Shown here in pieces: positions 44,386 to 62,760 of a stretch of DNA of 64,000 bases; positions within the stretch are counted from its first letter, which is position 1; each line of letters begins with the position of its first letter. Under the pieces are notes generated by a model. It saw only the letters and a list, made by a program, of their open reading frames with translations, ran no database searches and was not told where the DNA came from. Made by a program: the position numbers and the translations under genes. The stretch lies in NCBI GenBank assembly GCA_018970325.1, contig JAGWWP010000005.1, positions 1,594 through 65,593 on the forward strand, in the 5' to 3' direction. Source of the DNA: Cyanobacteria bacterium REEB446. Its GTDB lineage: Bacteria > Cyanobacteriota > Vampirovibrionia > LMEP-6097.

Positions 44386-44411
44386 ATAGAGATTATATCG
44401 TCCAATAAAAG

Positions 44412-44488
44412 TGGTAGCTGGGGGCGGAATCGAACCGCCGACCTGAGGGGTATGAATCCTCTGCTCTAGCCAACTGAGCTACCCAGCC
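44412..44488 (-). tRNA. tRNA with CAT anticodon (Met or lysidine-Ile2), CCA encoded
   Basis: RC GGCTGGGTAGCTCAGTTGGCTAGAGCAGAGGATTCATACCCCTCAGGTCGGCGGTTCGATTCCGCCCCCAGCTACCA. G1-U72 wobble. One A-C mismatch in the anticodon stem. Confidence 0.65.
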
Positions 44489-48503: not shown

Positions 48504-48537
48504 AATCTGCCATAATATGATTTGGTGAATAATCAAA
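48504..48537 (+). repeat. left copy of a perfect 34-bp direct repeat (AATCTGCCATAATATGATTTGGTGAATAATCAAA) bracketing the hsdRSM-ietAS block
   Basis: Identical 34-mer at 57948-57981. This copy overlaps the hsdR start codon region. Confidence 0.7.
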
Positions 48538-51323
48538 ACCCTGAGCAAAAAACGAGAGACAACATCGATAAGATGCTGGAAACTGCTGGCTGGGTAGTGC
48601 AAGATAAAGATAAAATAGACTGGTCAAATCATAAAGGTATCGCTATTCGAGAGTATTCTACAGATACTGGTCCAGCTGATTATGTTTTATTTATTAATAT
48701 AGATGCTGCCAAATTTCCGATTGGAATAATCGAAGCAAAACCAGAAGATGAGGGTCAAAGAATCAGTATTCATGAGGAACAGGTACTTAGATATGCGGAA
48801 AGCAAGCTCAAATACTGTATCGCTACTGAGCCTATACCTTTTCTCTATATCTCTACGAGCATAAGAACTCTTTTCTTTAATCTTAAAGATCCTAAGCCTC
48901 GTTCTAGAGAGATTTTTAATTTTCATAGACCAGAGACTTTAATAGAATGGTCTCAAGATGAAGGAACCCTAAGATCACGCTTAGAAAATTTACCGCTTTT
49001 ACAGACTGAAGGTTTGCGTGACTGTCAGATTAAAGCGATAAATAATCTTGAGAAATCGTTTAAACAAGCTAAGCCAAAGGCTTTAATCCAGATGGCTACA
49101 GGAAGTGGCAAGACCTTTACTGCTATTACTTTTATTTATCGACTTTTAAAATATGCTAAAGCAAAGAGAATATTGTTTTTAGTTGATACTAAAAACCTCG
49201 GCGAGCAGGCTGAACAAGAGATTAGAAATTATATTCCTCCAGATGATAATAGAACTTTCTCTGAGTTATACACAGTCCAAAGGCTTAAAAATAGTTACGT
49301 TCCACAAGACACGAAGGTTTGCATTAGCACTATACAGAGAATGTACTCTATCTTGAAGGGTGAAGCTTTAGAAGAATCTGCTGAGGATCAGAATCCTAAT
49401 GAGTATGAATTTATAAGTCAAGAAAAAATGAAAGAAGTTATTTATAACTCAAATGCTCCGATTGAAATGTTTGATTTTATTATTATTGATGAATGCCACA
49501 GGTCTATTTATAATCTCTGGAAGCAAGTTCTTGATTATTATGATGCTTTCTTGATTGGTTTAACTGCTACTCCAGACAAAAGAACTTTTGCTTTCTTTAA
49601 TGAAAATGTCGTCAGTGAATATACTCATGAAGAAGCTGTCGCTGATGGCGTAAACGTAGGTTATGACATTTATGTTATTGAAACTGAAATTACTAAACAA
49701 GGCTCGAAAATAAAAGCTAAAGAATATATAGAAAAACGAGATAAGTTATCACGTAAAAAACGCTGGGAGCAGCAAGATGAAGATTTAGAATATAGCTCAA
49801 AGCAGCTTGATAAAGATATAGTAAATCCGAGTCAGATTCGTAATATTATAAAAGCCTTTCGTGATAAGCTATCTGAAATATTTCCTAATCGTAAACAGTC
49901 TAATGATCAAATAGAAGTGCCGAAGACATTAGTTTTCGCTAAAACTGATAGTCATGCTGATGACATTATTTCGATAATTCGGGAGGAGTTCGGAGAAAGA
50001 AACGACTTCTGTAAAAAAATAACTTATAAATCTAAAGAAGACCCTAGCGAAGATCCTAAAAGTATTCTAGCTAGTTTTCGCAATTTATATAATCCAAGAA
50101 TCGCTGTAACAGTAGATATGATCGCTACAGGTACTGATGTTAAGCCGATAGAATGTCTGTTGTTCATGCGTGATGTTAAATCTAGAAACTATTTTGAGCA
50201 GATGAAAGGACGAGGTACGAGAACGCTTGCAGCAGATGATTTAAAACGAATAACACCAAGTGCTAAAACTGGAAAAACGCATTTCGTAATAGTAGATGCA
50301 GTCGGTGTAACTAAATCAGTTAAAACAGATAGTAGGTCACTAGAAAGAAAGAAGACTGTACCATTAAAAGACCTGATGTACAGCATTCTAATGGGTTCTA
50401 AAGATGAAGATGTTTTTCTTTCAGTGGCTAGCAGACTTTCAAGGCTTAATAATGAAATTAGTCCCCAAGAAAAACAAAAATTTCAAGAAATCACTAAGGG
50501 GAAATCTTTAAATACAGTGATACACGAGCTTTTAAATGCATTTGATGCTGATGAGATTGAAATCAAGGCTAGAGAAAGTTTTCAGATAGATTCTCTGAGC
50601 GAACCAAGCGAGGAGCAAAAATCAAAGGCTCAATTAGAGCTAATTAGAATAGCTTCTTCTAGTTTTACTGGGAACTTAAATACTTACATAGAGAATGTAA
50701 GGAGAGAATATGAACAGACTATAGATGTGGTAAATATTGATAAGCTTGAGTTTGCAGGCTGGGATTCACAGGCAAAAGCAGAGAATCATATAAATGAATT
50801 TAAAGATTTTTTAGAAAAACATAAAGATGAGATAATAGCTCTAAGAATCTTTTACAATGAGCCTTATAGATTAAAAGATTTGACTTATAAGATGATAGGA
50901 GAGCTTTATGAAGTTCTTCAGCGAGAAAAACCTCACTTGGCACCGCTATATGTCTATGAAGCTTTTGAAAGGTTTGAAGAAAATAAATCCAATAAACCAG
51001 AGAATCAGCTCACAGCTTTAGTTTCTCTAATCAGAAAGGTTTGCGGCATTGATAAAACCCTTACGGCATTTGATGATGTGGTTAATCGTAATTTTAAAAG
51101 TTGGATTTTCAAGAAACAAGCTGGCTCTTTAAAATTTAATGAAGAACAAATGGACTGGTTAAGAATGATTAAAAGTCATATCACAAGCTCTTTTCATATA
51201 GATAAAGATGATTTTGAATATGCACCATTTGATGCACAAGGTGGTTTAGGAAAAATGCATAAACTTTTTGGGCTGGATGCAGATTCGGTTATTAGTGAGA
51301 TGAATGAGGTATTGGTGGCGTGA
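48522..51323 (+). CDS. hsdR: type I restriction enzyme R subunit
   Basis: N-terminal Mrr-cat-like nuclease region. SF2 helicase motifs I (QMATGSGKTFTA), II (DECHRS) and VI (QMKGRGTR). TTG/GTG start. Confidence 0.9.
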   Translation: MVNNQNPEQKTRDNIDKMLETAGWVVQDKDKIDWSNHKGIAIREYSTDTGPADYVLFINIDAAKFPIGIIEAKPEDEGQRISIHEEQVLRYAESKLKYCIATEPIPFLYISTSIRTLFFNLKDPKPRSREIFNFHRPETLIEWSQDEGTLRSRLENLPLLQTEGLRDCQIKAINNLEKSFKQAKPKALIQMATGSGKTFTAITFIYRLLKYAKAKRILFLVDTKNLGEQAEQEIRNYIPPDDNRTFSELYTVQRLKNSYVPQDTKVCISTIQRMYSILKGEALEESAEDQNPNEYEFISQEKMKEVIYNSNAPIEMFDFIIIDECHRSIYNLWKQVLDYYDAFLIGLTATPDKRTFAFFNENVVSEYTHEEAVADGVNVGYDIYVIETEITKQGSKIKAKEYIEKRDKLSRKKRWEQQDEDLEYSSKQLDKDIVNPSQIRNIIKAFRDKLSEIFPNRKQSNDQIEVPKTLVFAKTDSHADDIISIIREEFGERNDFCKKITYKSKEDPSEDPKSILASFRNLYNPRIAVTVDMIATGTDVKPIECLLFMRDVKSRNYFEQMKGRGTRTLAADDLKRITPSAKTGKTHFVIVDAVGVTKSVKTDSRSLERKKTVPLKDLMYSILMGSKDEDVFLSVASRLSRLNNEISPQEKQKFQEITKGKSLNTVIHELLNAFDADEIEIKARESFQIDSLSEPSEEQKSKAQLELIRIASSSFTGNLNTYIENVRREYEQTIDVVNIDKLEFAGWDSQAKAENHINEFKDFLEKHKDEIIALRIFYNEPYRLKDLTYKMIGELYEVLQREKPHLAPLYVYEAFERFEENKSNKPENQLTALVSLIRKVCGIDKTLTAFDDVVNRNFKSWIFKKQAGSLKFNEEQMDWLRMIKSHITSSFHIDKDDFEYAPFDAQGGLGKMHKLFGLDADSVISEMNEVLVA

Positions 51324-52768
51324 TGGGGCTTATGGTAAGGGATATGACTGAATCATTTCAGTCTCAGATTAATAATTTATGGACAGTTGTTCCATTAGAT
51401 ACAGTTTTGATAAGTCTTGAATCTGGTAAAAGACCGAGGGGGGGAGTTAAAGATATTAAAACTGGCATACCAAGCTTAGGAGGAGAACATTTAAATTCAG
51501 ACGGTGGATTTAAATTTGAAAATATTCGCTATATTCCAGAAGAATTTGCTCTTAATATGCTGAGAGGACAAATTAAACAAGATGATATCTTAATAGTCAA
51601 AGACGGGGCTACTACAGGCAAGGTTTCATTTGTTAATAGAGACTTCCCTTATAGTAACGCGGTTGTCAATGAACATGTATTCATATGTCGCATCTCAAAA
51701 TTCATAGATCCTAAGTTTATTTTTTACTTTCTTTTCAGCGAGACAGGCCAAAAAAGAATACTAGAAAATTTTAAAGGTTCTGCACAAGGTGGAATCAACT
51801 CTTCATTCTCAGCTGAAACATTAATTTCTTTAGCCCCCCTCAAGGAACAAAAACGCATAGTTAATAAAATCGAAGAACTCTTATCAGAATTAGATCACGC
51901 CGTAGAAAGTTTTAAAAAAATACAACAGCAATTAAAAATCTATCGCCAAGCGGTTTTGAAGGCTGCTTTTGAGGGGAAGTTGACGGAGGAATGGAAAAAA
52001 TTTAATTCACAGAACATAAATTTAGATCCTTCTCGTAGTTTTGTCGAAATTAAAAAACTTGGCGATCTTATAGAAGAGCCTAAATATGGTACATCTAAAA
52101 AATGCTCTTATGAAAATGGGAATCTTGGAGTGCTAAGAATACCTAATCTTGTTGATTATAAAATTGACTTAGATGATTTAAAAAAAGCTGAATTTAATGA
52201 ATCAGAGAAAGAAGCTTATTCACTCAAAAAAGGAGACCTCCTTATAATTCGTTCAAATGGTAGCCCATCTTTAGTTGGAACTGCGAGCATTATTGATTCT
52301 CACAGTTCAAAATGTCTCTTCGCTGGATATTTAATACGTCTTCGGTGTTTAAATTCTTTAAATCCTAATTATCTTTTATATTGTTTACATTCATATTCTG
52401 TGAGGAATCAAATTGAACTTCAATCAAGGTCAACGAGTGGAGTTCACAATATTAATTCTCAAGAGATTAAAAGCCTTTTAATTCCCTACTGCTCTCTCGA
52501 AGAACAAAACCAAATAATCCAAGAAATCGAATCCCGCCTATCCATCTGTGATGAACTAGAAAAGACTATAGAACAGAATTTAATTCTAGAAAAATCATTA
52601 CGCCAAAGCATTTTAAAGAAAGCTTTTGAGGGGAAATTAGTCCCACAAGATCCAAATGATGAGCCTGCAGAGCTTTTATTAGAGAAGATTAAGCTCGAAA
52701 AAGAGAAATTAGCTAAATTAACTAATTCAAGCAAAACTAAGACTAAAAGGGAGAAAGTCACAGCATGA
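51320..52768 (+). CDS. hsdS: type I restriction-modification specificity subunit
   Basis: Two target-recognition domains, each followed by the conserved repeat (QAVLKAAFEGKL and QSILKKAFEGKL). ATGA overlap with hsdR and hsdM. Confidence 0.85.
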   Translation: MMGLMVRDMTESFQSQINNLWTVVPLDTVLISLESGKRPRGGVKDIKTGIPSLGGEHLNSDGGFKFENIRYIPEEFALNMLRGQIKQDDILIVKDGATTGKVSFVNRDFPYSNAVVNEHVFICRISKFIDPKFIFYFLFSETGQKRILENFKGSAQGGINSSFSAETLISLAPLKEQKRIVNKIEELLSELDHAVESFKKIQQQLKIYRQAVLKAAFEGKLTEEWKKFNSQNINLDPSRSFVEIKKLGDLIEEPKYGTSKKCSYENGNLGVLRIPNLVDYKIDLDDLKKAEFNESEKEAYSLKKGDLLIIRSNGSPSLVGTASIIDSHSSKCLFAGYLIRLRCLNSLNPNYLLYCLHSYSVRNQIELQSRSTSGVHNINSQEIKSLLIPYCSLEEQNQIIQEIESRLSICDELEKTIEQNLILEKSLRQSILKKAFEGKLVPQDPNDEPAELLLEKIKLEKEKLAKLTNSSKTKTKREKVTA

Positions 52769-54240
52769 ACGTCAGTTCAATCATACAAAAAATCTGGAAT
52801 TACTGTACCGTATTAAGGGACGATGGTTTAAGCTATGGTGACTATCTAGAACAGCTTACCTATCTACTCTTCATCAAGATGGCTGATGAATACTCAAAGC
52901 CTCCTCATAATAGAGAAACTAATATCCCAGAAAAATATAATTGGAAAAGTTTAACTAAGATAAGTGGTTCTGACCTAGAAGTTCATTATGTGGATTTATT
53001 ACTTAATCTAGGCAAAGCTAAAGGCATACTAGGACAGATTTTCACTAAATCGCAGAACAGAATACAAGACCCAGCGAAACTCTATAAACTAATCCAGATG
53101 ATAGATAGTGAAGAATGGGTAATTATGGGAGCTGATGTTAAGGGAGATATCTATGAAGGTCTTTTAGAAAAGAATGCCGAAGACACGAAGAGCGGAGCAG
53201 GGCAGTACTTCACTCCTAGAGCTTTAATTAAAGCCATGGTTGAGTGCATTAGACCTGAACCCATGAACACTATTGCAGATCCAGCTTGTGGTACGGGTGG
53301 ATTTTTTCTTGGAGCCTATGATTTTATAGCTAATAACTATAAACTTGATAAACAGGAAAAGGAGTTCCTAAAAAAACATACTTTTGCTGGTAACGAAATA
53401 GTTGCTAACACTCGCAGACTTGCTTTGATGAATCTCTTTTTACATAATATTGGAGATTTAACGGGAGATTCAGTAATTTTTCCTCAGGATGCTCTTATCG
53501 CAGATAGCGGCCAGCGATTTGATTATGTCCTTGCTAATCCACCATTCGGAAAGAGAAGTAGTATGACTTTCACTAACGATGATGGAGATCAAGAGAAAGA
53601 AGATTTAACTTATAATCGCCAAGATTTTTGGACTACCACTTCTAATAAGCAGTTAAATTTCGTTCAGCATATAAAGACCATACTTAAAACTACAGGTAAG
53701 GCTGCCATCGTAATTCCAGATAATGTTTTATTTGAAGGTGGTGCTGGTGAGATAATTAGAAAAAAATTACTTGAAACCACTGATCTGCACACGATTTTAA
53801 GGCTACCTACAGGTATTTTTTATGCTAATGGAGTTAAGGCAAATGTAATTTTCCTTGATAACAAACCAGCTGCCAAAGAGCCTTGGACTAAAGAAATTTG
53901 GTTTTATGATTATCGGACGAATATTCATCATACGAAGAAAAAAGATCCTCTGCGATTTGAACACTTAAAAGATTTTATTCAGTGTTACAATCCAACCAAT
54001 CCACATCAGCGTAAAGAGACATATTCAGAAATCAATCTAGAGGGCAGATGGCGTAAATTTACTTATAATGAGATCATCTCTAGAGATAAAACTAGTTTAG
54101 ATATTTTCTGGTTAAAAGATAAGAGTTTAACTGACTTAGAGAATCTCCCAGAGCCAGATTTGCTTGCTAATGAAATTATAGAAAATTTAGAGGCAGCCCT
54201 CGGAAGCTTTAAAGATATGGCTAGAATATTAAACTCTTAA
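52765..54240 (+). CDS. hsdM: type I restriction-modification N6-adenine DNA methyltransferase
   Basis: HsdM N-terminal domain. AdoMet motif I (DPACGTGGF) and catalytic NPPFG. Confidence 0.9.
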   Translation: MNVSSIIQKIWNYCTVLRDDGLSYGDYLEQLTYLLFIKMADEYSKPPHNRETNIPEKYNWKSLTKISGSDLEVHYVDLLLNLGKAKGILGQIFTKSQNRIQDPAKLYKLIQMIDSEEWVIMGADVKGDIYEGLLEKNAEDTKSGAGQYFTPRALIKAMVECIRPEPMNTIADPACGTGGFFLGAYDFIANNYKLDKQEKEFLKKHTFAGNEIVANTRRLALMNLFLHNIGDLTGDSVIFPQDALIADSGQRFDYVLANPPFGKRSSMTFTNDDGDQEKEDLTYNRQDFWTTTSNKQLNFVQHIKTILKTTGKAAIVIPDNVLFEGGAGEIIRKKLLETTDLHTILRLPTGIFYANGVKANVIFLDNKPAAKEPWTKEIWFYDYRTNIHHTKKKDPLRFEHLKDFIQCYNPTNPHQRKETYSEINLEGRWRKFTYNEIISRDKTSLDIFWLKDKSLTDLENLPEPDLLANEIIENLEAALGSFKDMARILNS

Positions 54241-56831
54241 GTCCTAGTCCTCGTTCTAGAATTAATATGAGAGTGAATTTCTGTGTAAATATCTATATCT
54301 GAGTCTATCTCTAATGTGATAGCTAATACATACGCAATCACATCAGAGTTTCTTTTTGAGTTCCCTTTTTGAGAACAAACAGAAATCTTTGCTAGATTAT
54401 TGGAGGAGTCTATAGCAAGAATAGCTTTTCCTTTTTTTAGCTCATAAATAGAATGTTTACAGGTATTTAACATTACATTGCCTGCTTGCTCAGAGCTAAT
54501 CTGTTCTTCAAAAGAACCATCCTTACTAATTTTAATATCTAGCTTACTTTGCTGATAATCACTGGTTTCTGGACTAATATCACTAAACCAAACCAAGGTA
54601 GAAATCAATCTTATATTGCTAGACAATGACTGATTTCTAAATTCTGAAGGCAAAGGAATTTCGTAGTCATGCTGAGTCGCAGCAGATATTTTATTACAAG
54701 CAATAAATAACACAGAATGATTAAAAGCACTGATAGATCTTTCAAAATCAGTCTTACCATAGCCATGAAAGCGAGCTAACTCCCTAGGCTTTTTAAAGTT
54801 ACCATCAGAATGATTAGCACTAGCGTTCCGATGTATAAATTGTAAAAAATCAGGATCATGCCAACTAGAGTGTATAAGAAGATTTTTAATCAATAAAGCA
54901 TCATATTCTTTGTCTGGGAATATCTCTGTTGATAAATAATCATTCTCTAAGAGTTGCTCATAGATTCTAATTGCATTATTAGTCGCTAATGCTGTAGCAT
55001 AACTAGTTCCACAGCCTCGTGCCTGTTTATTTAGATCTCCAGATTTAGCAGTAAAAGCATGTTTAAGCCCGAATTTATTACTAGCAGGATTTTCGCTTTC
55101 TAATTTAGAACTAAAGAAAAGCTTTTTATAGACTGAACTCCCTCCTGAAAACAATAGTTCAGGCTTAATAGATTTCTTCACTCCTAAGCCTACTCTAGAA
55201 TAAGCTGCACAATACTTATCATTTCGATATAAAATACCATTTTCTTGATTAGTGATTTTCTTTTCTATTTCAGAGTCGTCGTATTCTGTAGCTCCTATAC
55301 AGAGAGAGTTTACAGATTCTGCGGGTGAAATAATTTTCAGATTATTGAGATCCTTTCTCTTGCTACTTAAGACCACACTAAATTTCTCTTCATCTGAAAG
55401 CCTTATGAACTCTTCTTTATCACAATCTAAAGATAAAGCAGCATTATTACCAGCACTAATTAAAAATAGAACTTTATGTTTATATGATAAAAAATCTATC
55501 ATTTTAGCTAAAGGTGATATTCTTCTTGCTAAGTACGGTCTATAAAGATCTCCTAAAGAAAAATTAATTACTCTAACAGATTCCTTTTCTTTAAAAAGCA
55601 TTTCTACTGCGTCATACACAAGCTTTATAAACAGCTTATCATTTGGGATTATCTCCCTATCACCAGAGGAAAGCATAATTGGACAGTGCAATATTTTAGA
55701 ATTAATCCTCTCATCATTTTTATAAGTACCATTAATAACAATCGAACTCACGGCAGTACCATGAAATCTTTTATCCGCAGGATACTTAGCTTCAAAGTCA
55801 AATAAATCTAGAACATCTATAAAATTTTTAATATCATTGTGATTCTGTAAAGGCATTCCATCTAATATTGCAGCATAAGACTTTTCATATTTAGGTTTAT
55901 GTGTTTTAGATGATTCTAAATCACTATCAGGGCTTTGCTTTCTAAGCATCGCTTGTGGTGAAGGATTAATAAACATCACAGAATCAGCTTTTAAAAGCTG
56001 CATTCCTGTAAAATTAGATTTCTCCTTAAGTTTTAAAATAAGTTCTTTTTTAACAGAAGCTTTTAAGCCATGATAATTAATTTCCTCACAAACAAAGATA
56101 TCTAGGAGCTTTCCACCATCTAATTCAAGTATCTCTTTAATTCTATTTTCGGCTTCTTCTCTTCTATGTGGATCTCTGTGAAACCATAACTCAATCTCGA
56201 TAAAGAAGTCTTCGTGATCCAAATTAAGACCTTCTGTTTGTAAAACCCAGTCTTGAAGCTGCTCTTCATTCTCTATTCGATCATTTTCTGACCATTCTCT
56301 TATGTCTAATAAATATTTAAAGGCATCTCTAAATTTGGTGTAATTCCTTGGTAACTCCTCCCCTTTTTCATATTTTTGCCATAAGCGAATAAAAGTCTTA
56401 AATCCTTTCTCAGTATAGAACACACAGAAAGCTTTACTTTTCCCCACTGTAATTTTATTATTTGACTTTTTATCACAATATTCTAAAAACTCTGGGATTT
56501 CATAATTATCTTTAATTAACTGTGCGAAATATTCACAGCCTTTTATTTTATTAAATGCATTAATTAAATCCTCTAGCTTATCATCTAAAAATTCTAAAAC
56601 TAATACCTTCCCTAAATCATCTCCACTCAATCCAGCTTCATCAGTGACCCTCAGCGTTTCAAAATCTCTTAAGATCGCTTCAGAACGCTCTTTAAACCAA
56701 ATGGCCTGCTTTTCTTTGGATGATAATGTATATTTTTCCTTACCACCACGCCCGCTGCCCTTATAGGCTAACTCAGAATTACTAATAAGATAGATAGGTC
56801 TGCGTCTTTTATTAGTCTTGAGCCTCTCCAT
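54237..56831 (-). CDS. S8 subtilase-family peptidase with ~330-aa uncharacterised N-terminal domain (IetS-like)
   Basis: Catalytic triad contexts AILDGM (Asp), HGTAVSS (His) and GTSYATALA (Ser), plus oxyanion SAGNNA. 11-nt gap from the upstream AAA+ ATPase gene on the same strand. Confidence 0.55.
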   Translation of the reverse strand: MERLKTNKRRRPIYLISNSELAYKGSGRGGKEKYTLSSKEKQAIWFKERSEAILRDFETLRVTDEAGLSGDDLGKVLVLEFLDDKLEDLINAFNKIKGCEYFAQLIKDNYEIPEFLEYCDKKSNNKITVGKSKAFCVFYTEKGFKTFIRLWQKYEKGEELPRNYTKFRDAFKYLLDIREWSENDRIENEEQLQDWVLQTEGLNLDHEDFFIEIELWFHRDPHRREEAENRIKEILELDGGKLLDIFVCEEINYHGLKASVKKELILKLKEKSNFTGMQLLKADSVMFINPSPQAMLRKQSPDSDLESSKTHKPKYEKSYAAILDGMPLQNHNDIKNFIDVLDLFDFEAKYPADKRFHGTAVSSIVINGTYKNDERINSKILHCPIMLSSGDREIIPNDKLFIKLVYDAVEMLFKEKESVRVINFSLGDLYRPYLARRISPLAKMIDFLSYKHKVLFLISAGNNAALSLDCDKEEFIRLSDEEKFSVVLSSKRKDLNNLKIISPAESVNSLCIGATEYDDSEIEKKITNQENGILYRNDKYCAAYSRVGLGVKKSIKPELLFSGGSSVYKKLFFSSKLESENPASNKFGLKHAFTAKSGDLNKQARGCGTSYATALATNNAIRIYEQLLENDYLSTEIFPDKEYDALLIKNLLIHSSWHDPDFLQFIHRNASANHSDGNFKKPRELARFHGYGKTDFERSISAFNHSVLFIACNKISAATQHDYEIPLPSEFRNQSLSSNIRLISTLVWFSDISPETSDYQQSKLDIKISKDGSFEEQISSEQAGNVMLNTCKHSIYELKKGKAILAIDSSNNLAKISVCSQKGNSKRNSDVIAYVLAITLEIDSDIDIYTEIHSHINSRTRTRT

Positions 56832-56842
56832 AATTACAAATT

Positions 56843-57826
56843 TTAAAATTTAGCTTTCACAAAATTCTTAGATTGTTTAATAATATCTATAAAAGCTTTA
56901 ATATCTTTCTTAGACAGAGATTGATTCTTATTCAGTTTAATAAAATAACTACGTCTAACACTATCACAGAACTCTTTTAAATCCGAGAAAGAAAAATTAT
57001 TCAGCATTCTGCTCAAATAGCTAAATTGATACAAAAAATCAATGTCAAAACGCTTAGAATAAGATTCAAGATATTTTATAATTTCTAATTCTGATGGGGC
57101 ATCTAACTCTAATGTAATCTGAAACCTCCTAGTCATAGCGTGATCTAGAGCTTCAGGATGATTAGTAGCAGCAATCAGAATCGTATTAGATGATAATTTA
57201 TCAATATTAGTAAGTAACAGATTAACTATTCTTTTAACTTCCCCAACTTCATTCTTGTCACCACGTGATTTAGAAACGGTATCAAATTCATCAAAGAATA
57301 AAACACAATTGGAATTATATATTGAGGAAAATAATTTTTTAATGCGACTAAGGCTTTCACCTAAAAGGCTGTTAATGAGGACTTCATAATTTACATGATA
57401 TAAAGGTACTGCCAACTCATAAGCCATAGCCTCAGCCAAAGAAGTTTTTCCATTACCTGGTTTGCCTACTAAAAGTATTTTATTTCTAGGATTAATACCA
57501 TTGGACCTTAAATAGTCTTTCATAGAATACTCTTCAAGAAAGTCAGAGACAATTTGCAAATTAATATTAGAGAGTATTAATTCACCAAGCTCAATCTCAG
57601 GTTTAATAACAGTAAAAAAATCACTATTTACACCAGTTTGATTTTCAAGGAACTCAAACTTTTTTGTTTCTGTTACATTTAGTGCTTTTTTTAGACGTTC
57701 CGCAAGTGTATGATGCTGTTTAAACTCTTCCTCTTTGATTATTGACTGTGCGATTTCAACAAATAAATCAAAGTTCTTTTCAGAACCAGCTTTAATAAGA
57801 TTTGTCAATAGATCTGTTCGTGCCAT
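56843..57826 (-). CDS. AAA+ ATPase (classic CDC48/FtsH-type AAA domain; IetA-like)
   Basis: Walker A GKPGNGKTS, Walker B VLFFDEFD and second region of homology ATNHPEALDHAMTRRF. Confidence 0.6.
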   Translation of the reverse strand: MARTDLLTNLIKAGSEKNFDLFVEIAQSIIKEEEFKQHHTLAERLKKALNVTETKKFEFLENQTGVNSDFFTVIKPEIELGELILSNINLQIVSDFLEEYSMKDYLRSNGINPRNKILLVGKPGNGKTSLAEAMAYELAVPLYHVNYEVLINSLLGESLSRIKKLFSSIYNSNCVLFFDEFDTVSKSRGDKNEVGEVKRIVNLLLTNIDKLSSNTILIAATNHPEALDHAMTRRFQITLELDAPSELEIIKYLESYSKRFDIDFLYQFSYLSRMLNNFSFSDLKEFCDSVRRSYFIKLNKNQSLSKKDIKAFIDIIKQSKNFVKAKF

Positions 57827-58017: not shown

Positions 58018-58539
58018 ATGTTTGAAAACATCTCAGAAAGACTAAAAGAACGTGCTCAGAAAATAAAAATGATCGGCTTCGACGTAGACGGCGTTCTGAC
58101 AGATGGTTCGCTTTATATAGCTAAAGATGGTGAATCTGTAAAAAGATTCTTCGCCTTAGATGGACATGGCATAAAACTCGCTCAGAACTTCGGTTTAACT
58201 GTGGTTATAGTCTCTGCTCGTAAAAGTGAGCAGACTATCAATCGCTGTACTGATCTGGGTGTCAAAGAAATTCACACGGGTGTAGAAAACAAACTGAGCT
58301 GCGTTCAAGATTTACTAAAACGCTATGAACTTAATTATGATGAGTTCGCCTTTATCGGTGATGACAGCATAGATGTTCCAGTCTTAGAACTAGTGGGCTT
58401 AGCTGCCTGTCCAGCAGATTCACATTATTCAGTATTTAAGCATATTCATTACATTACTGAGCGTAAAGGCGGACAGGGAGCGGCTAGGGAATTTATTGAT
58501 TTGATTCTTGCCATGCAGGGGAAGATACCAGTAGCTTAA
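58018..58539 (+). CDS. kdsC: 3-deoxy-D-manno-octulosonate 8-phosphate phosphatase (HAD-IIIA)
   Basis: HAD motif I FDVDGVLTDG. Motifs GDDSIDVPV and GGQGAAREF match KdsC. Confidence 0.8.
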   Translation: MFENISERLKERAQKIKMIGFDVDGVLTDGSLYIAKDGESVKRFFALDGHGIKLAQNFGLTVVIVSARKSEQTINRCTDLGVKEIHTGVENKLSCVQDLLKRYELNYDEFAFIGDDSIDVPVLELVGLAACPADSHYSVFKHIHYITERKGGQGAAREFIDLILAMQGKIPVA

Positions 58540-59126
58540 TCACACTCTAGCATTGAAATTAAAAGATTTAATTCTGGTATCGTTTTACGCTTTTCGTCGA
58601 GAATCTCCTTTGTTAGATTATCTCGATAGAAACTTAGCTCATCTTTACCTTTAATAATTCCACCTACAGCATTTTTTAAAGTCTTTAGGTCACTAGGTAG
58701 TGCTTTACCCAGCACTTTTAAAATGAAAGACTCTACAGATCGTGGCTGAGAGACAATTAAAGTAGGTCTCTTTTTATTCTTTGCATTAAAATTAGTTTGC
58801 AGTTTAGCCAAAGGGGTATTATTAAAGCTTTCTATGCGTTCCTCTGATATATTCCAAGCTTGAGCAAGTGATTTTTTATTTTTAATTTCTTTATCCTCGT
58901 CTAGCCAAACAAAACATCTATCACGATCATTATTACAAATCGCTGTATTAATTAGTGTATCTGCGTCACCGCCACCACTACAACGACCTTTATCAAGACT
59001 GACGGAAATAGATATACTATTTTTATCTAAGTAAAGTTCTTCTAATATTTTAAAAAAGAATCTCTCCCTTTGTCCTTCTAGGACAGCGTAGAGGGTAATT
59101 TTACGTTTACGTTGCTTTCTCCCCAC
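58536..59126 (-). CDS. RloB-like / DUF4276-like small protein (TOPRIM-like), partner of upstream AAA_21 ATPase (AbiLii-like)
   Basis: 196 aa. N-terminal ITLYAVLEGQRERFFF resembles the (I/V)xCEGxTE...YF signature of RloB/DUF4276. 2-nt gap to the upstream ATPase gene. Confidence 0.45.
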   Translation of the reverse strand: MGRKQRKRKITLYAVLEGQRERFFFKILEELYLDKNSISISVSLDKGRCSGGGDADTLINTAICNNDRDRCFVWLDEDKEIKNKKSLAQAWNISEERIESFNNTPLAKLQTNFNAKNKKRPTLIVSQPRSVESFILKVLGKALPSDLKTLKNAVGGIIKGKDELSFYRDNLTKEILDEKRKTIPELNLLISMLECD

Positions 59127-59128
59127 GC

Positions 59129-60352
59129 TTAAAACCCTCTATTTAACCAGTCTATATCAGGTACACCACCGTAAGTGCCGCTTAAATATTTTTGAGCATA
59201 GTTTTCATCATTACGAACTCCTTCTACTTCATCTAAACGATATATCTCAGTCGTCAAATCCTCTTTATTTTTTTCAACAATAAATATCTGCGTTTTAGTA
59301 AGTTCTTTCAGTAATAGCGCTTGATGTGTACTGAAGAGGATTTGAGCATTATATTTATTTATTTTTTTATTCATAAATAGAGAAAGTATTTTCTGAATCA
59401 AGTGGGGATGTATATTTGTCTCTATTTCATCAATCACGATAAGTCCACCTTCTTCTAGGACAGGGATTATTTTTAAAAATAAATTAAACGCCGTTCTAGT
59501 CCCATGAGATTCATCATGGAGGAATAGATCAAATTCAGCTCCAGTGAGTGTTTTATGTCTAAGGCAGAGTATCTTTTTATTCGTATCTTGTAGGTCTAGG
59601 AAAAAATGATCGCCTATCCCTATATCTAAACTCTTCATAAGTTTAATAGTCTTATCCTCTAATTTCGAATCTTGATTTTGATTTTGGATTAAGTGACGTT
59701 CAGCAGCAGATGGATAGGAGCTAATACTAGACTGGTTAATAGATAAATAAGAGCGCTTAAAAAAAAGGATTTTGGGTAAATATCCAGTATTTAAAAGGCT
59801 AGAAAAAATTGGGACAGTTAAACAACGACTTAAAAAACGCTCTTTATCTGATTTATTTAAGTTAAGTTCTGTTGAAATACTCAGATCAAGCTTTTCACCA
59901 TGTCTTGATAAGCTGAAAATTTTTTTAAATCTAGTATTAGTTTTTTTCTCCAATACTTCATTAAGAATGAATGGTCCATTCAAAACGAGTTTGTAACGAT
60001 ATAAATCTTGTTCATTATAAAACTCTATTGTGAAGCAAGACTCTTTATCTTGATGTAAAGCATGAGCTTTGTATCCTCCTATGCCTTGAGAGTAATCATA
60101 AGAAGAACCGATTAAAGGTGGTACTTTAAGATACGAATCATTTATCCAAGAAATTAAAAATGATAGCCCCTTAAGTATATTAGATTTACCAGAGCCATTG
60201 GCTCCCACCAAACCTGCGATAAGAGTAAAATTCTGTGACCCCACTACAGAAAAGGATTCATTTAAACAGTCTTTTTTAGAAACCTCTAAGGATACGCTCT
60301 GTGGCTCAAGCCCAATACTATAAAAATTAGACACTGTAAAAGATTTGAGCAT
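59129..60352 (-). CDS. AAA_21-type (ABC/OLD-like) ATPase (AbiLi-like)
   Basis: Walker A LVGANGSGKSN near the N-terminus. Walker B/D-loop-like LIVIDEIETNIHPHL near the C-terminus with a long helical insert between, as in AAA_21 abortive-infection ATPases. Confidence 0.65.
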   Translation of the reverse strand: MLKSFTVSNFYSIGLEPQSVSLEVSKKDCLNESFSVVGSQNFTLIAGLVGANGSGKSNILKGLSFLISWINDSYLKVPPLIGSSYDYSQGIGGYKAHALHQDKESCFTIEFYNEQDLYRYKLVLNGPFILNEVLEKKTNTRFKKIFSLSRHGEKLDLSISTELNLNKSDKERFLSRCLTVPIFSSLLNTGYLPKILFFKRSYLSINQSSISSYPSAAERHLIQNQNQDSKLEDKTIKLMKSLDIGIGDHFFLDLQDTNKKILCLRHKTLTGAEFDLFLHDESHGTRTAFNLFLKIIPVLEEGGLIVIDEIETNIHPHLIQKILSLFMNKKINKYNAQILFSTHQALLLKELTKTQIFIVEKNKEDLTTEIYRLDEVEGVRNDENYAQKYLSGTYGGVPDIDWLNRGF

Positions 60353-60458
60353 TATCCCTTCATTTTAACGATATTTTGTTATTTTTCCACTAATTTGAAC
60401 AAAATAGTTTAAATCTAGTAAAATCAGCCCTCGGCAAGAATGCTAAAATCATAAACCT

Positions 60459-60998
60459 ATGCAAATCAAAGGTAAAGTTCTAAAAGTCCTAAAGTCAAAC
60501 ATAGACACCGATCAAATCATCCCAGCAAGACACCTTACAGGGATTAGCAAAACTGGTTTAGGGAAATTTTTATTTGAAGATCTACCGAATAATCCACTAG
60601 ATGATATTGAGCATGAGGGTGCGAAAATTATTCTTACTTTAGAAAACTTCGGCTGCGGCTCTTCACGTGAGCATGCGGTTTGGTCTATTTTAGACAGAGG
60701 CTTTAATGCTGTTATCGCTGTAAATTTCGCAAGAATTTTTGAAGAGAACTGCTATAACAATGGCGTAGTGCCGATTAAGCTAAGTGAAGCAGAAATACAA
60801 GAAATAGATACAGCTTTAACTAATGATACTGAAGTTGAAATAGATGTCATAGAACAGGTTTTAAGTGTCGGAGCTAAAACTTATAAATTCAATTTAGATG
60901 AATTAAAAAAAGAATTTATTCTTAAAGGTGGCTTTATGAAGTTTTTAGATGCTAAAGTACCTAAAATTAAAGAGTGGGCTTTAGCTGAGAAGAGTTAA
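60459..60998 (+). CDS. leuD: 3-isopropylmalate dehydratase small subunit-like (LeuD / aconitase swivel domain)
   Basis: ILTLENFGCGSSREHA and NFARIF match the LeuD signature. No leuC is adjacent. Confidence 0.7.
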   Translation: MQIKGKVLKVLKSNIDTDQIIPARHLTGISKTGLGKFLFEDLPNNPLDDIEHEGAKIILTLENFGCGSSREHAVWSILDRGFNAVIAVNFARIFEENCYNNGVVPIKLSEAEIQEIDTALTNDTEVEIDVIEQVLSVGAKTYKFNLDELKKEFILKGGFMKFLDAKVPKIKEWALAEKS

Positions 60999-61769
60999 AA
61001 AATTATCTAGGCTTAAAGTCCTTAGCTCTAATGAATCCTGCACAAAATTTTCTAAATCAGAATGCACTTCCTTAAAATTAGTTTCTTCAAGACGCTTTAT
61101 TAAGCATGTTTGAAGACCTGCCATATCTAGTTTAGATTTTTTACCAGTACTTTGAGCGATAGCATTATTTAGTAAGACTAAATTAGGTTTAACTTTTTTA
61201 GTTAAATACCACATTAAATCATAGTAGTCTCTACCCTTGGTATATTTACGATGTAAAATAGCATGAAGCTTACCAGCATATAAACTAGGTAAATCATAAT
61301 GCTTAATGCCAAAGAAACTCTTTTGTATAGTGTATTCTAAGTTTGCTCCTTTTGGTGGATTCATATCCAATTCGAGTTTTATATATAATTTCTGTTCAGG
61401 TAGAGAAGTTAAGCCTAGCTCATAGAGAAGCTTTGCAAATTTTAATTGAGCTATGTAAACATTATTCTTAGTCTTTGAATTTATTTTCAGATTAATATTT
61501 AATAGTAAAAAACGCTTGCAGAGCTGGTCTAACATATTTATGAAATCAAAATCTTTTGCATCAATTAAACTAAAATCTAAATCTTCTGAAAAGCGATTTA
61601 AATCATATAAAATTCTCAGAGCAGTCCCACCAACAAAAGCAATATTCTTTGAAAATCCCTGCTGATCTATAATTTTCAGGGTTTGAATTTGAATAATCTC
61701 CCTTAGATAATTAAACTTTTCTTCAGTAGTAGAATATTTTTCTATTTGATTTTTTAATAAACTAAGCAT
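60981..61769 (-). CDS. AbiEii/AbiGii-family nucleotidyltransferase toxin (DUF1814)
   Basis: IAFVGGTALRILYDLNRFSEDLDFSL is the hallmark GG-TAL...RFSEDLDF motif of type IV TA nucleotidyltransferases. Confidence 0.75.
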   Translation of the reverse strand: MLSLLKNQIEKYSTTEEKFNYLREIIQIQTLKIIDQQGFSKNIAFVGGTALRILYDLNRFSEDLDFSLIDAKDFDFINMLDQLCKRFLLLNINLKINSKTKNNVYIAQLKFAKLLYELGLTSLPEQKLYIKLELDMNPPKGANLEYTIQKSFFGIKHYDLPSLYAGKLHAILHRKYTKGRDYYDLMWYLTKKVKPNLVLLNNAIAQSTGKKSKLDMAGLQTCLIKRLEETNFKEVHSDLENFVQDSLELRTLSLDNFLTLLS

Positions 61770-62397
61770 TTTTTAAAATCCTTTTTAAAACCACAATAGC
61801 CTGAGAGATTTTTTTCATATTAAATAAGCTGTCTAATTTCTTTAGTCGTGAGGCTTTCAAAATTTCCAGATTCTGTAATCTTAAATTTTCTTCAAAAAAA
61901 TCTTCATCAATGTTCTGATTTGCTTTAACTTTAAAGTAAATATAATCTAGAAGAGCTTTTTCAGGATAGGCAATTTTATAAGCATTACCAAATTCATCTA
62001 TTTGATGAATAAAATAGTCAAATAGGCTGGGTTTGATATGTTTGTAATTAAAGCTCGTTAAGTCATTTGTAAAAGTTTTAGTTTTACTAGTACTAACTGA
62101 ACTCACTTGAAAAACCCGCTCAGGGATTAATCTATAAAAACTCATAGCAGATTCTAAACTAATATATGAATTATCACCGTAGAGCAGCGAAGCCACATAA
62201 AAATTTGAAAATAATTTATTTTTCTCTAAACCCAAATAAGCATATAAACCTTTCTTTAACTGCATAACATAACCCTGTTGAATCCAGTTCTGAATCTGCC
62301 TGCGTAAAGTTTCTCGATCATAGCCAAGCAACTCCATGCTCTGCATAGTAAAAATGCGATTTTTTACGCTTAATCGGTGAAAATCTTCGAACTTCAT
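61762..62397 (-). CDS. AbiEi-like antitoxin / transcriptional regulator
   Basis: 8-nt overlap with the toxin gene. N-terminal winged-helix-like region (ETLRRQIQNWIQQGYVMQLKKGLYA). The track start (62415) is a TTG; the ATG at 62395-62397 is the likelier start. Confidence 0.55.
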   Translation of the reverse strand: MKFEDFHRLSVKNRIFTMQSMELLGYDRETLRRQIQNWIQQGYVMQLKKGLYAYLGLEKNKLFSNFYVASLLYGDNSYISLESAMSFYRLIPERVFQVSSVSTSKTKTFTNDLTSFNYKHIKPSLFDYFIHQIDEFGNAYKIAYPEKALLDYIYFKVKANQNIDEDFFEENLRLQNLEILKASRLKKLDSLFNMKKISQAIVVLKRILKNA

Positions 62398-62400
62398 TAT

Positions 62401-62434
62401 TTCCGTAACGGGCAATAATATTCCCGTTATGGAA
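62401..62434. promoter_or_regulatory. 12-bp-arm inverted repeat (TTCCGTAACGGG-N10-CCCGTTATGGAA) at the abiEi 5' end: candidate autoregulatory operator
   Basis: Near-perfect palindrome, one G-T mismatch, immediately upstream of the abiEi ATG. Confidence 0.45.
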
Positions 62435-62505: not shown

Positions 62506-62760
62506 TCACTTCAAACTCGGCAACTCATAACCCCAAGGACATCCTAGGCAGCCAGTCATACAACAACCCGACATAGCATCTTCCAGCTTATCTGATCTAG
62601 CTACTCCATCGGAATCTGGTCTAGTAGATCTTTCCAGCGCACGCATTGAGAAAAAATCTTCCAGATCCTTTTCTAAATCTTGAGCCAGTTTTTCAAAGTC
62701 TGGATATTCATCATCCTCAGGCTTTTCAGAATTTATAGGATCTTCTTTAGGCTTATCCAT
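62506..62760 (-). CDS. hypothetical acidic protein with C-terminal Cys cluster (84 aa)
   Basis: D/E-rich sequence, C-terminal GCCMTGCLGCPWG. 4 nt downstream of prfA. Confidence 0.3.
   Translation of the reverse strand: MDKPKEDPINSEKPEDDEYPDFEKLAQDLEKDLEDFFSMRALERSTRPDSDGVARSDKLEDAMSGCCMTGCLGCPWGYELPSLK

Follow-up and report, generated by a model that had tools for sequence, protein, structure and literature searches.

Closest described systems and organization of the locus

AbiL has been grouped with OLD, Gabija, retron-associated and PARIS systems as defence systems that combine an ATP-binding cassette (ABC) ATPase with a TOPRIM component (PMC11464382, PMC13064643), and PARIS AriB and P2 OLD have been reported to cleave tRNA (PMC12409363; bioRxiv 10.64898/2026.07.10.737580). 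Here, we describe a two-gene cassette from Cyanobacteria bacterium REEB446, located in a 64,000-nt stretch of contig JAGWWP010000005.1 (positions 1,594 to 65,593; hereinafter referred to as the window), which encodes a 407-aa ATPase and a 196-aa partner protein. The cassette is a divergent member of the already known AbiL/RloAB phage-defence family, and it quite probably constitutes a two-gene defence module of "split OLD-like" type, in which the ATPase and a Toprim-like nuclease are separate proteins.

In AbiL of Lactococcus lactis and in lactococcal prophage pairs, a single operon encodes an AAA_21/Rad50-like ATPase of approximately 400 aa followed by a translationally coupled RloB-family protein of approximately 190 aa, as is the case for the cassette in the window. 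The latter differs in that its ATPase shows only approximately 24% identity, while its partner is not recognized by the Pfam model of RloB, contains a helical insertion of approximately 28 aa and does not have the Cys of the PCxEG motif. It is also chromosomal, lying between kdsC and leuD in a Melainabacteria-like metagenome-assembled genome (MAG), and its role in phage resistance is putative. RloA/RloB from the type I restriction-modification (R-M) loci of Campylobacter jejuni (PF13707) shares the pairing of an ATPase with RloB and the E...DxD core, but the present cassette lies outside the hsd operon, is free of R-M genes in sister contigs and belongs to a divergent long-form subfamily. PARIS likewise consists of a split ABC ATPase sensor and Toprim effector, and by analogy a common sequestration/release logic, possibly also with tRNA as the target, is plausible; however, the effector in the window is of RloB type, not DUF4435, and neither an AriA-specific signal nor any sign of a hexameric propeller or Ocr sensing was found. 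In P2 OLD and Gabija GajA (class 1 and 2 OLD nucleases), the ABC ATPase and Toprim domains are also combined, but they are fused in one polypeptide, whereas separate genes encode them in the window.

Both open reading frames (ORFs) were found where the initial annotation of this DNA had placed them, on the strand opposite to kdsC and leuD. The upstream gene (59129 to 60352, minus strand; ATG start) encodes the ABC-type (AAA_21), AbiLi-like ATPase, for which we propose a sensor or regulator function, and the downstream gene (58536 to 59126, minus strand; GTG start) encodes a divergent RloB/AbiLii-family protein, the proposed Toprim-like nuclease effector, whose database annotation is "hypothetical protein" only. 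The partner GTG begins 2 nt past the ATPase stop codon and is preceded by a Shine-Dalgarno-like site (AGAGGG). An AbiLi-matching ATPase followed after a 2-nt gap by an RloB-family partner is the AbiL-like organization that had been suggested, and the order of the two genes was kept in every relative sampled, across several phyla. The flanking genes were identified, again in line with the initial annotation, as kdsC (58018 to 58539, plus strand; NCBIfam KdsC-phosphatase subfamily, 3.3e-48, above its cutoff) and leuD (60459 to 60998, plus strand; TIGR00171, 1.9e-37), and one TTAA is common to the stop codons of the partner gene and kdsC. Close relatives carry Melainabacteria or Vampirovibrionia labels. 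Compared with three orthologues, the ratio of nonsynonymous to synonymous substitution rates (dN/dS) was 0.13–0.16 for the ATPase and 0.24–0.30 for the partner. These low values indicate that both genes of the cassette are under purifying selection, and because of them both ORFs are regarded as real genes and not as chance ORFs.

The ATPase

The ATPase matched Pfam AAA_21 (1.7e-22, 81 bits against a cutoff of 27) over model positions 1–303 of 304 and the PADLOC profile of AbiLi with 226 bits (1.5e-67), which bears out the assignment to AAA_21/OLD-like ABC ATPases made at the outset. The match to Pfam AAA_15 was under its cutoff. PADLOC also reported an "AriA" match (2.9e-23, 81.3 bits; residues 45–348, profile positions 1–303 of 304), which contains no PARIS-specific signal because its score and coordinates are exactly those obtained with AAA_21, a generic Pfam model; AbiLi outscored AriA by about 145 bits. 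The ATPase family profile aligned over its full length with ORF55 of the Lactococcus prophage proPhi7, annotated as "abortive phage resistance protein" (hhalign probability 99.7%, E 2.5e-26). Weak C-terminal matches were obtained to OLD, PtuA and GajA, and those to PtuA and an OLD nuclease were the sole sequence-level matches of the ATPase to solved structures.

Conserved positions were identified in an alignment (A6) of eight sequences, comprising the window and seven relatives down to 31% identity. The motifs cited in the initial annotation, GANGSGKSN (ATPase residues 50–58) and LIVIDEIETNIHPHL (residues 304–318), were both present. Walker A (G50-A-N-G-S-G-K56-S; 60182 to 60205, minus strand) contained the invariant residues G50, N52, S54, G55 and K56, and an ABC signature-like element (E281-S-H-G284; 59501 to 59512, minus strand) contained the invariant residues E281, S282 and G284. 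Walker B (LIVIDEIE, with D308 and E309) and the subsequent H315-P316 were located at 59405 to 59443 (minus strand), where G302, G303, D308, E309, H315 and P316 were invariant. Further invariant positions were Q337 and H343, and the C-terminal tail (residues 353–398) was strongly conserved.

The partner protein

The initial annotation had described the partner as RloB/DUF4276-like on the basis of an N-terminal motif, LYAVLEGQRERFF, which was found at residues 12–24. The RloB half of this description was upheld by family profiles, although the sequence alone falls short of the curated RloB threshold and the link was recovered through such profiles only. A word-indexed search with the partner retrieved 11 clusters, and a full hidden Markov model (HMM) search with the alignment of these clusters then retrieved 223 representative proteins at E≤1e-3. 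In an alignment of 61 family members (mean column identity 29%), E17, G18, D76, D78, P128 and K151 were invariant. Pfam RloB matched 14 of the 61 members and PADLOC AbiLii matched 20, while 40 of 43 shorter, more distant family hits were matched by RloB (best 2.3e-13). The partner-family profile aligned end to end with this 43-sequence set (hhalign probability 100%, E 8.9e-40). It also aligned over residues 4–139 (hhalign probability 97.2%) with three independently annotated RloB proteins, from a Stenotrophomonas phage, an Asticcacaulis plasmid and Lactococcus proPhi7; the last of these, ORF56, is the neighbour of ORF55 and itself matched Pfam RloB at 4.6e-25. On these profile comparisons, the partner family is clearly homologous to RloB. 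The DUF4276 half of the description was abandoned, as PF14103 gave no match to the partner and matched one of the 61 family members at E 0.031. Searches with the partner alone found no NCBIfam family apart from a chance match to sigma-32 and no PHROG, a tblastn search against plasmids gave no match, and searches of PDB sequences with the partner alone and with the 61-sequence profile returned chance matches to PU.1 only, without any relative.

The partner structure was predicted with AlphaFold2 from the 61-sequence alignment with a predicted local distance difference test (pLDDT) score of 94.4; this model replaced an earlier run with 12 close sequences (pLDDT 65). Strands at residues 10–16, 38–44, 70–76 and 122–126 alternated with helices and were followed by a C-terminal helical bundle. 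The predicted strands and helices, together with the invariant residues, delineate a Toprim-like beta/alpha core (residues 10–139; 58710 to 59099, minus strand), and the arrangement is read as a Toprim pattern because E17 follows strand 1 and D76-x-D78 lies at the end of strand 3. A conserved Glu, a DxD motif and a four-stranded parallel beta/alpha core, which together characterize a Toprim domain, were thus all found in the partner, with invariant residues and a pLDDT of 94. Candidate metal-binding residues, based on conservation on the predicted core, are E17 (59076 to 59078), E21 and D76-E77-D78 (58893 to 58901), all on the minus strand. A Foldseek search with the model gave no structural match to the OLD Toprim, and no superposition was obtained on a Toprim domain of known structure (OLD, GajA, AriB or RNase M5); the best viral fold match was an "RloB-like protein" (probability 0.98).

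The polybasic N-terminus RKQRKRK (residues 3–9; 59100 to 59120, minus strand), which corresponds to the family consensus MGKKKRKxK, probably contacts nucleic acid. The partner subfamily is set apart from canonical short RloB proteins by the helical insertion of approximately 28 residues (approximately 93–120; 58767 to 58850, minus strand), which appeared as a gap against alignments A4 and A8 (hhalign) and in A5 and for which helices were predicted at 95–103 and 106–113.

Insertion site and mobility

Independent insertion of the pair between kdsC and leuD, as the initial annotation had suggested, was borne out by synteny in relatives. In ten contigs which all encode one KdsC protein sequence, a close relative of that in the window, the cassette was present at the kdsC-leuD site in four (L007, L008, L011 and L016), while the site was empty, with the two genes 18 nt apart, in six (L009, L010, L012, L013, L014 and L015); it was also empty in L003. 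The pair is therefore not conserved with kdsC and shows presence/absence polymorphism; conservation with kdsC across distant taxa was the second outcome that the initial annotation had named as speaking against its proposal. Base-level comparison with the empty L009 delimited an insert of 1898 bp (58541 to 60438, minus strand), consisting of the ATPase gene, the partner gene and 86 nt of their own upstream region. The empty site of L009 reads GTAGCTTAAT followed directly by GCTAAAATCATAAACCTATG, whereas in the window GTAGCTTAAT is followed by CACACTC...GGCAAGAAT and then by GCTAAAATC. AAT is present at both junctions (58538 to 58540 and 60439 to 60441). When the ends of the cassette were searched for terminal repeats, whether direct or inverted, AT-rich noise was all that emerged, and the cassette does not contain a recombinase gene.

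A diverged copy of the cassette was found at an alternative site in L003, L004, L014 and L015, directly 3' of tRNA-Met(CAU) and between LpxC and a DUF748 gene, with identities to the window of 62% for the ATPase and 58% for the partner (8568 to 10696 in L003; 1023 to 3250 in L014). The same site is empty in the window, where the gap between the start of the DUF748 gene and tRNA-Met(CAU) (44412 to 44488) comprises 26 nt (44386 to 44411, minus strand). No contig was seen with copies at both the kdsC-leuD and tRNA-Met sites, and the junctions at the latter showed no clean target-site duplication. Nothing therefore points to insertion by a transposase or an integrase, given the absence of terminal repeats and of a clean duplication at the tRNA-Met site. 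The partner at the tRNA-Met site of L014 and L015 (1212 to 1727) has 171 aa and is C-terminally truncated relative to the 203-aa form of L003, a difference that may be due to decay or to faulty assembly. An IS110-family transposase gene, which does not occur in the window, was present directly upstream of kdsC in L016 (18 to 974), one of the contigs carrying the cassette.

The divergence of the cassette is decoupled from that of the host. Between the window and L008, dS was 0.32 for kdsC, 0.24 for leuD and 0.016 for the ATPase gene, whereas between the window and L003 the corresponding values were 0.22, 0.31 and 1.7. In the mismatch profile, the ATPase gene was near-identical in five contigs whose flanks differed by 3–8%. 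The 3' half of the partner gene, corresponding to the C-terminal helical bundle, was mosaic when window positions 58468 to 58900 were compared with L016, L011 and L001: L016, whose ATPase gene is near-identical to that of the window, had 18–30 mismatches per 150 nt there and an L001-like allele, which suggests recombination or diversification within the C-terminal domain of the partner.

A scan of genome contigs gave two loci, and a metagenome scan with the ATPase alignment gave 11, most of which had a short partner. The pair was again a solitary two-gene insert among housekeeping genes in unrelated genomes, and homologous ATPases with RloB-annotated partners were present in 107 plasmid records and in temperate phages. 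The cassette is horizontally mobile and self-contained.

Upstream dyad and promoter-like signals

The cassette includes 86 nt ahead of the ATPase gene, and in this segment a 16-bp dyad, TAAC-N8-GTTA (TAACAAAATATCGTTA in the mRNA sense; 60366 to 60381, minus strand), lies 13 nt upstream of the ATPase ATG, with AAAAT directly after it. The upstream block proximal to the start codon was conserved even between copies of the cassette with a saturated coding dS (above 1.4). The dyad was found in the window and at seven other loci (L001 5757, L003 8767, L006 6715, L017 3757, L019 1494, L034 1268 and L037 107), including other phyla, with the form TGAC...GTCA in an Alphaproteobacteria MAG. Its distance to the ATPase start codon is 13–19 nt in the window and at six of these loci; in L019, whose ATPase ORF appears to be N-terminally truncated, the dyad precedes the annotated start by approximately 73 nt. 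In 190.8 kb of loci, the motif occurred 11 times, of which eight were upstream of an ATPase gene, compared with 2.7 occurrences in shuffled sequences. Complementarity was 84% versus 21–54% with slid pairing, and symmetric double changes were observed at four of the eight positions. The dyad of L006 is nested in an inverted repeat with 16-bp arms that takes in the ribosome-binding site. Loci of the long-partner subfamily had the dyad, and it was absent upstream of short-partner RloB loci.

Judging from its sequence and position, the dyad could be an operator or a short hairpin in the 5' untranslated region. It overlaps a promoter-like sequence, TGGAAA-16-TAAAAT (60362 to 60389, minus strand), which came from a consensus scan and serves as a lead only; neither the number of promoter-like sites nor the outcome of the terminator scan was above shuffle expectation. 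One further idea, unlikely on balance, is that the long-partner subfamily (approximately 200 aa, with the insertion) is a distinct, autoregulated AbiL subtype whose own protein binds the dyad over the promoter. No DNA-binding domain was detected in the ATPase or the partner, and under such a scheme the dyad would most plausibly be bound by the partner, via its insertion and C-terminal helical bundle. If this were true, expression of the module would depend on whether the nuclease is free or bound, similar to the conditional cooperativity of type II toxin-antitoxin systems. To our knowledge, transcriptional self-control has not been described for ABC and Toprim (OLD-like) defence systems. The current picture of OLD-like systems is left unchanged unless this regulatory idea is confirmed, and the conserved dyad provides a handle on the regulation of such modules.

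A second promoter-like sequence in the upstream region of the cassette, TTGAAC-18-TAAAAT (60395 to 60424, plus strand), is directed at leuD; it is likewise a consensus match not above shuffle expectation. At the empty sites, where leuD lies 18 nt after kdsC, the two genes are probably co-transcribed, and a substitute promoter for leuD may thus come with the insert.

Proposed mode of action and alternative explanations

The ATPase is proposed as the sensor or keeper and the RloB-type protein as the nuclease effector, because of the grouping of AbiL in the literature and the tRNA cleavage reported for AriB and OLD. The 407-aa ATPase, in which the Walker A, signature, Walker B and H-loop motifs are all intact, would dimerize via ATP and, in the uninfected cell, would keep the 196-aa partner inactive. 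A phage-derived cue would alter the state of the ATPase, and the partner would then be freed or activated and would cut nucleic acid in a metal-dependent manner at the site formed by Glu17, Glu21 and Asp76-x-Asp78. Host tRNA would be the most likely target by analogy with PARIS AriB and P2 OLD, and its cleavage would stop translation and abort the infection. The promoter region belonging to the cassette and the 16-bp dyad may permit autoregulation. We regard tRNA as the leading candidate substrate, albeit only tentatively and at clearly less than even chances.

Several points weigh against this assignment. The choice of tRNA as the target is pure analogy, and GajA, another Toprim enzyme, cuts DNA. 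In the partner, the Cys of the short-RloB motif PCxEG is replaced (PRSVES). Taken alone, the partner had no Pfam match at E≤0.1, including RloB, DUF4276 and DUF4435, and its match to PADLOC AbiLii was weak (1e-4, 20.7 bits); the initial annotation had called for this HMM comparison and had named the lack of a significant hit as evidence against its own proposal, so that on this point it formally fails. Moreover, the mechanism of AbiL itself is not established in the literature (PMC11464382, PMC13064643).

Among the other explanations, a mainly selfish, toxin-antitoxin (TA)-like addiction cassette survives best, though we consider it improbable. Such an element would persist by post-segregational killing without a dedicated anti-phage role; its toxin would be the nuclease, its antitoxin the ATPase, and it would repress itself at the dyad as operator. 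Such a cassette would agree with the compact two-gene operon standing alone among housekeeping genes in several genomes, with a conserved dyad that overlaps a promoter-like sequence, an arrangement known from many operators of type II TA systems, and with the signs of decay seen in the truncated partners of L014 and L015; PARIS, too, acts as a TA pair. It accords less well with the purifying selection on both genes and with the homologues located at prophage moron positions and in defence islands, and AbiL, the founding member of the family, confers phage resistance. Addiction nevertheless overlaps mechanistically with the defence module proposed above, and the two are compatible.

The initial annotation had also pointed to PARIS, in which an AriA hexamer senses Ocr-like anti-restriction proteins and releases a DUF4435 Toprim tRNase. 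PARIS has the same general architecture, in which a small partner of Toprim type comes after an ABC ATPase, type I R-M genes are present at a distance of 4 kb, and the PADLOC "AriA" match to the ATPase (2.9e-23) would at first sight agree. That match, however, is that of a generic AAA_21 domain in score and coordinates, against 226 bits for AbiLi; DUF4435 (PF14491) matched neither the partner nor any of the 61 family members; and the partner gave no AriB hit, has 196 aa, compared with about 300 aa in AriB, and belongs to a family that links to RloB. With neither an AriA-specific nor a DUF4435 signal, the PARIS-like alternative is very improbable.

Slightly less credible still is the idea that the cassette serves the neighbouring type I R-M system as an accessory and works only with it, similar to Campylobacter rloA/rloB in hsd loci. 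The name RloB does derive from restriction-linked ORFs, and hsdR, hsdS and hsdM (48522 to 54240) are part of the same island, but L007, L008, L011 and L016 have the cassette at the same site without R-M or IetAS genes, and distant relatives are flanked by unrelated housekeeping genes. Finally, a housekeeping pair for DNA repair or chromosome maintenance (RecF/Rad50/OLD-like), belonging to the core genome beside kdsC, is the least probable explanation, as the weak N-terminal SMC_N and RecF matches that might favour it are under their cutoffs and confined to the P-loop, and it is contradicted by the empty sites, that is, by presence and absence among contigs with identical KdsC, as well as by the alternative sites and the decoupled divergence.

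As an AbiL/RloAB-type module, the cassette extends this class of split ABC-ATPase/Toprim systems to Melainabacteria/Vampirovibrionia, the non-photosynthetic relatives of cyanobacteria. The Pfam model of RloB fails to detect the partner subfamily, which comprises 223 representative clusters, and such systems may therefore be under-counted. The polymorphism in presence and in the site used within one metagenomic population is a record of the turnover of a minimal defence cassette without a recombinase.

Neighbouring defence genes

The cassette sits in a patchwork defence island whose systems vary independently among sister contigs. The type I R-M genes are hsdR (48522 to 51323), hsdS (51320 to 52768) and hsdM (52765 to 54240), and they are followed, just upstream of kdsC, by IetS/IetA (54237 to 56831 and 56843 to 57826; PADLOC 4.8e-186 and 2.9e-102). 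L007 has a near-identical cassette and leuD region and does not have this R-M/IetAS block of approximately 9.6 kb, which appears for this reason to be a separate insertion.

Beyond leuD, AbiEii/AbiEi (60981 to 62415; PADLOC 5.8e-70 and 1.7e-43) converge on leuD, with an overlap of 18 nt at the 3' end of the latter. The AbiE slot of relatives is occupied by a transpeptidase gene, by Fic, transpeptidase and AAA_14/DUF4143 genes, or by nothing. The presence of AbiE is independent of the AbiL-like cassette; in L010, for example, AbiE is present and the kdsC-leuD site is empty. An 84-aa ORF (62506 to 62760, minus strand), whose N-terminal part is acidic and whose C-terminus is rich in Cys (CCMTGCLGCPWGY), lies beside prfA and is conserved there in relatives, in which it has 74–84 aa and no recorded Pfam family.

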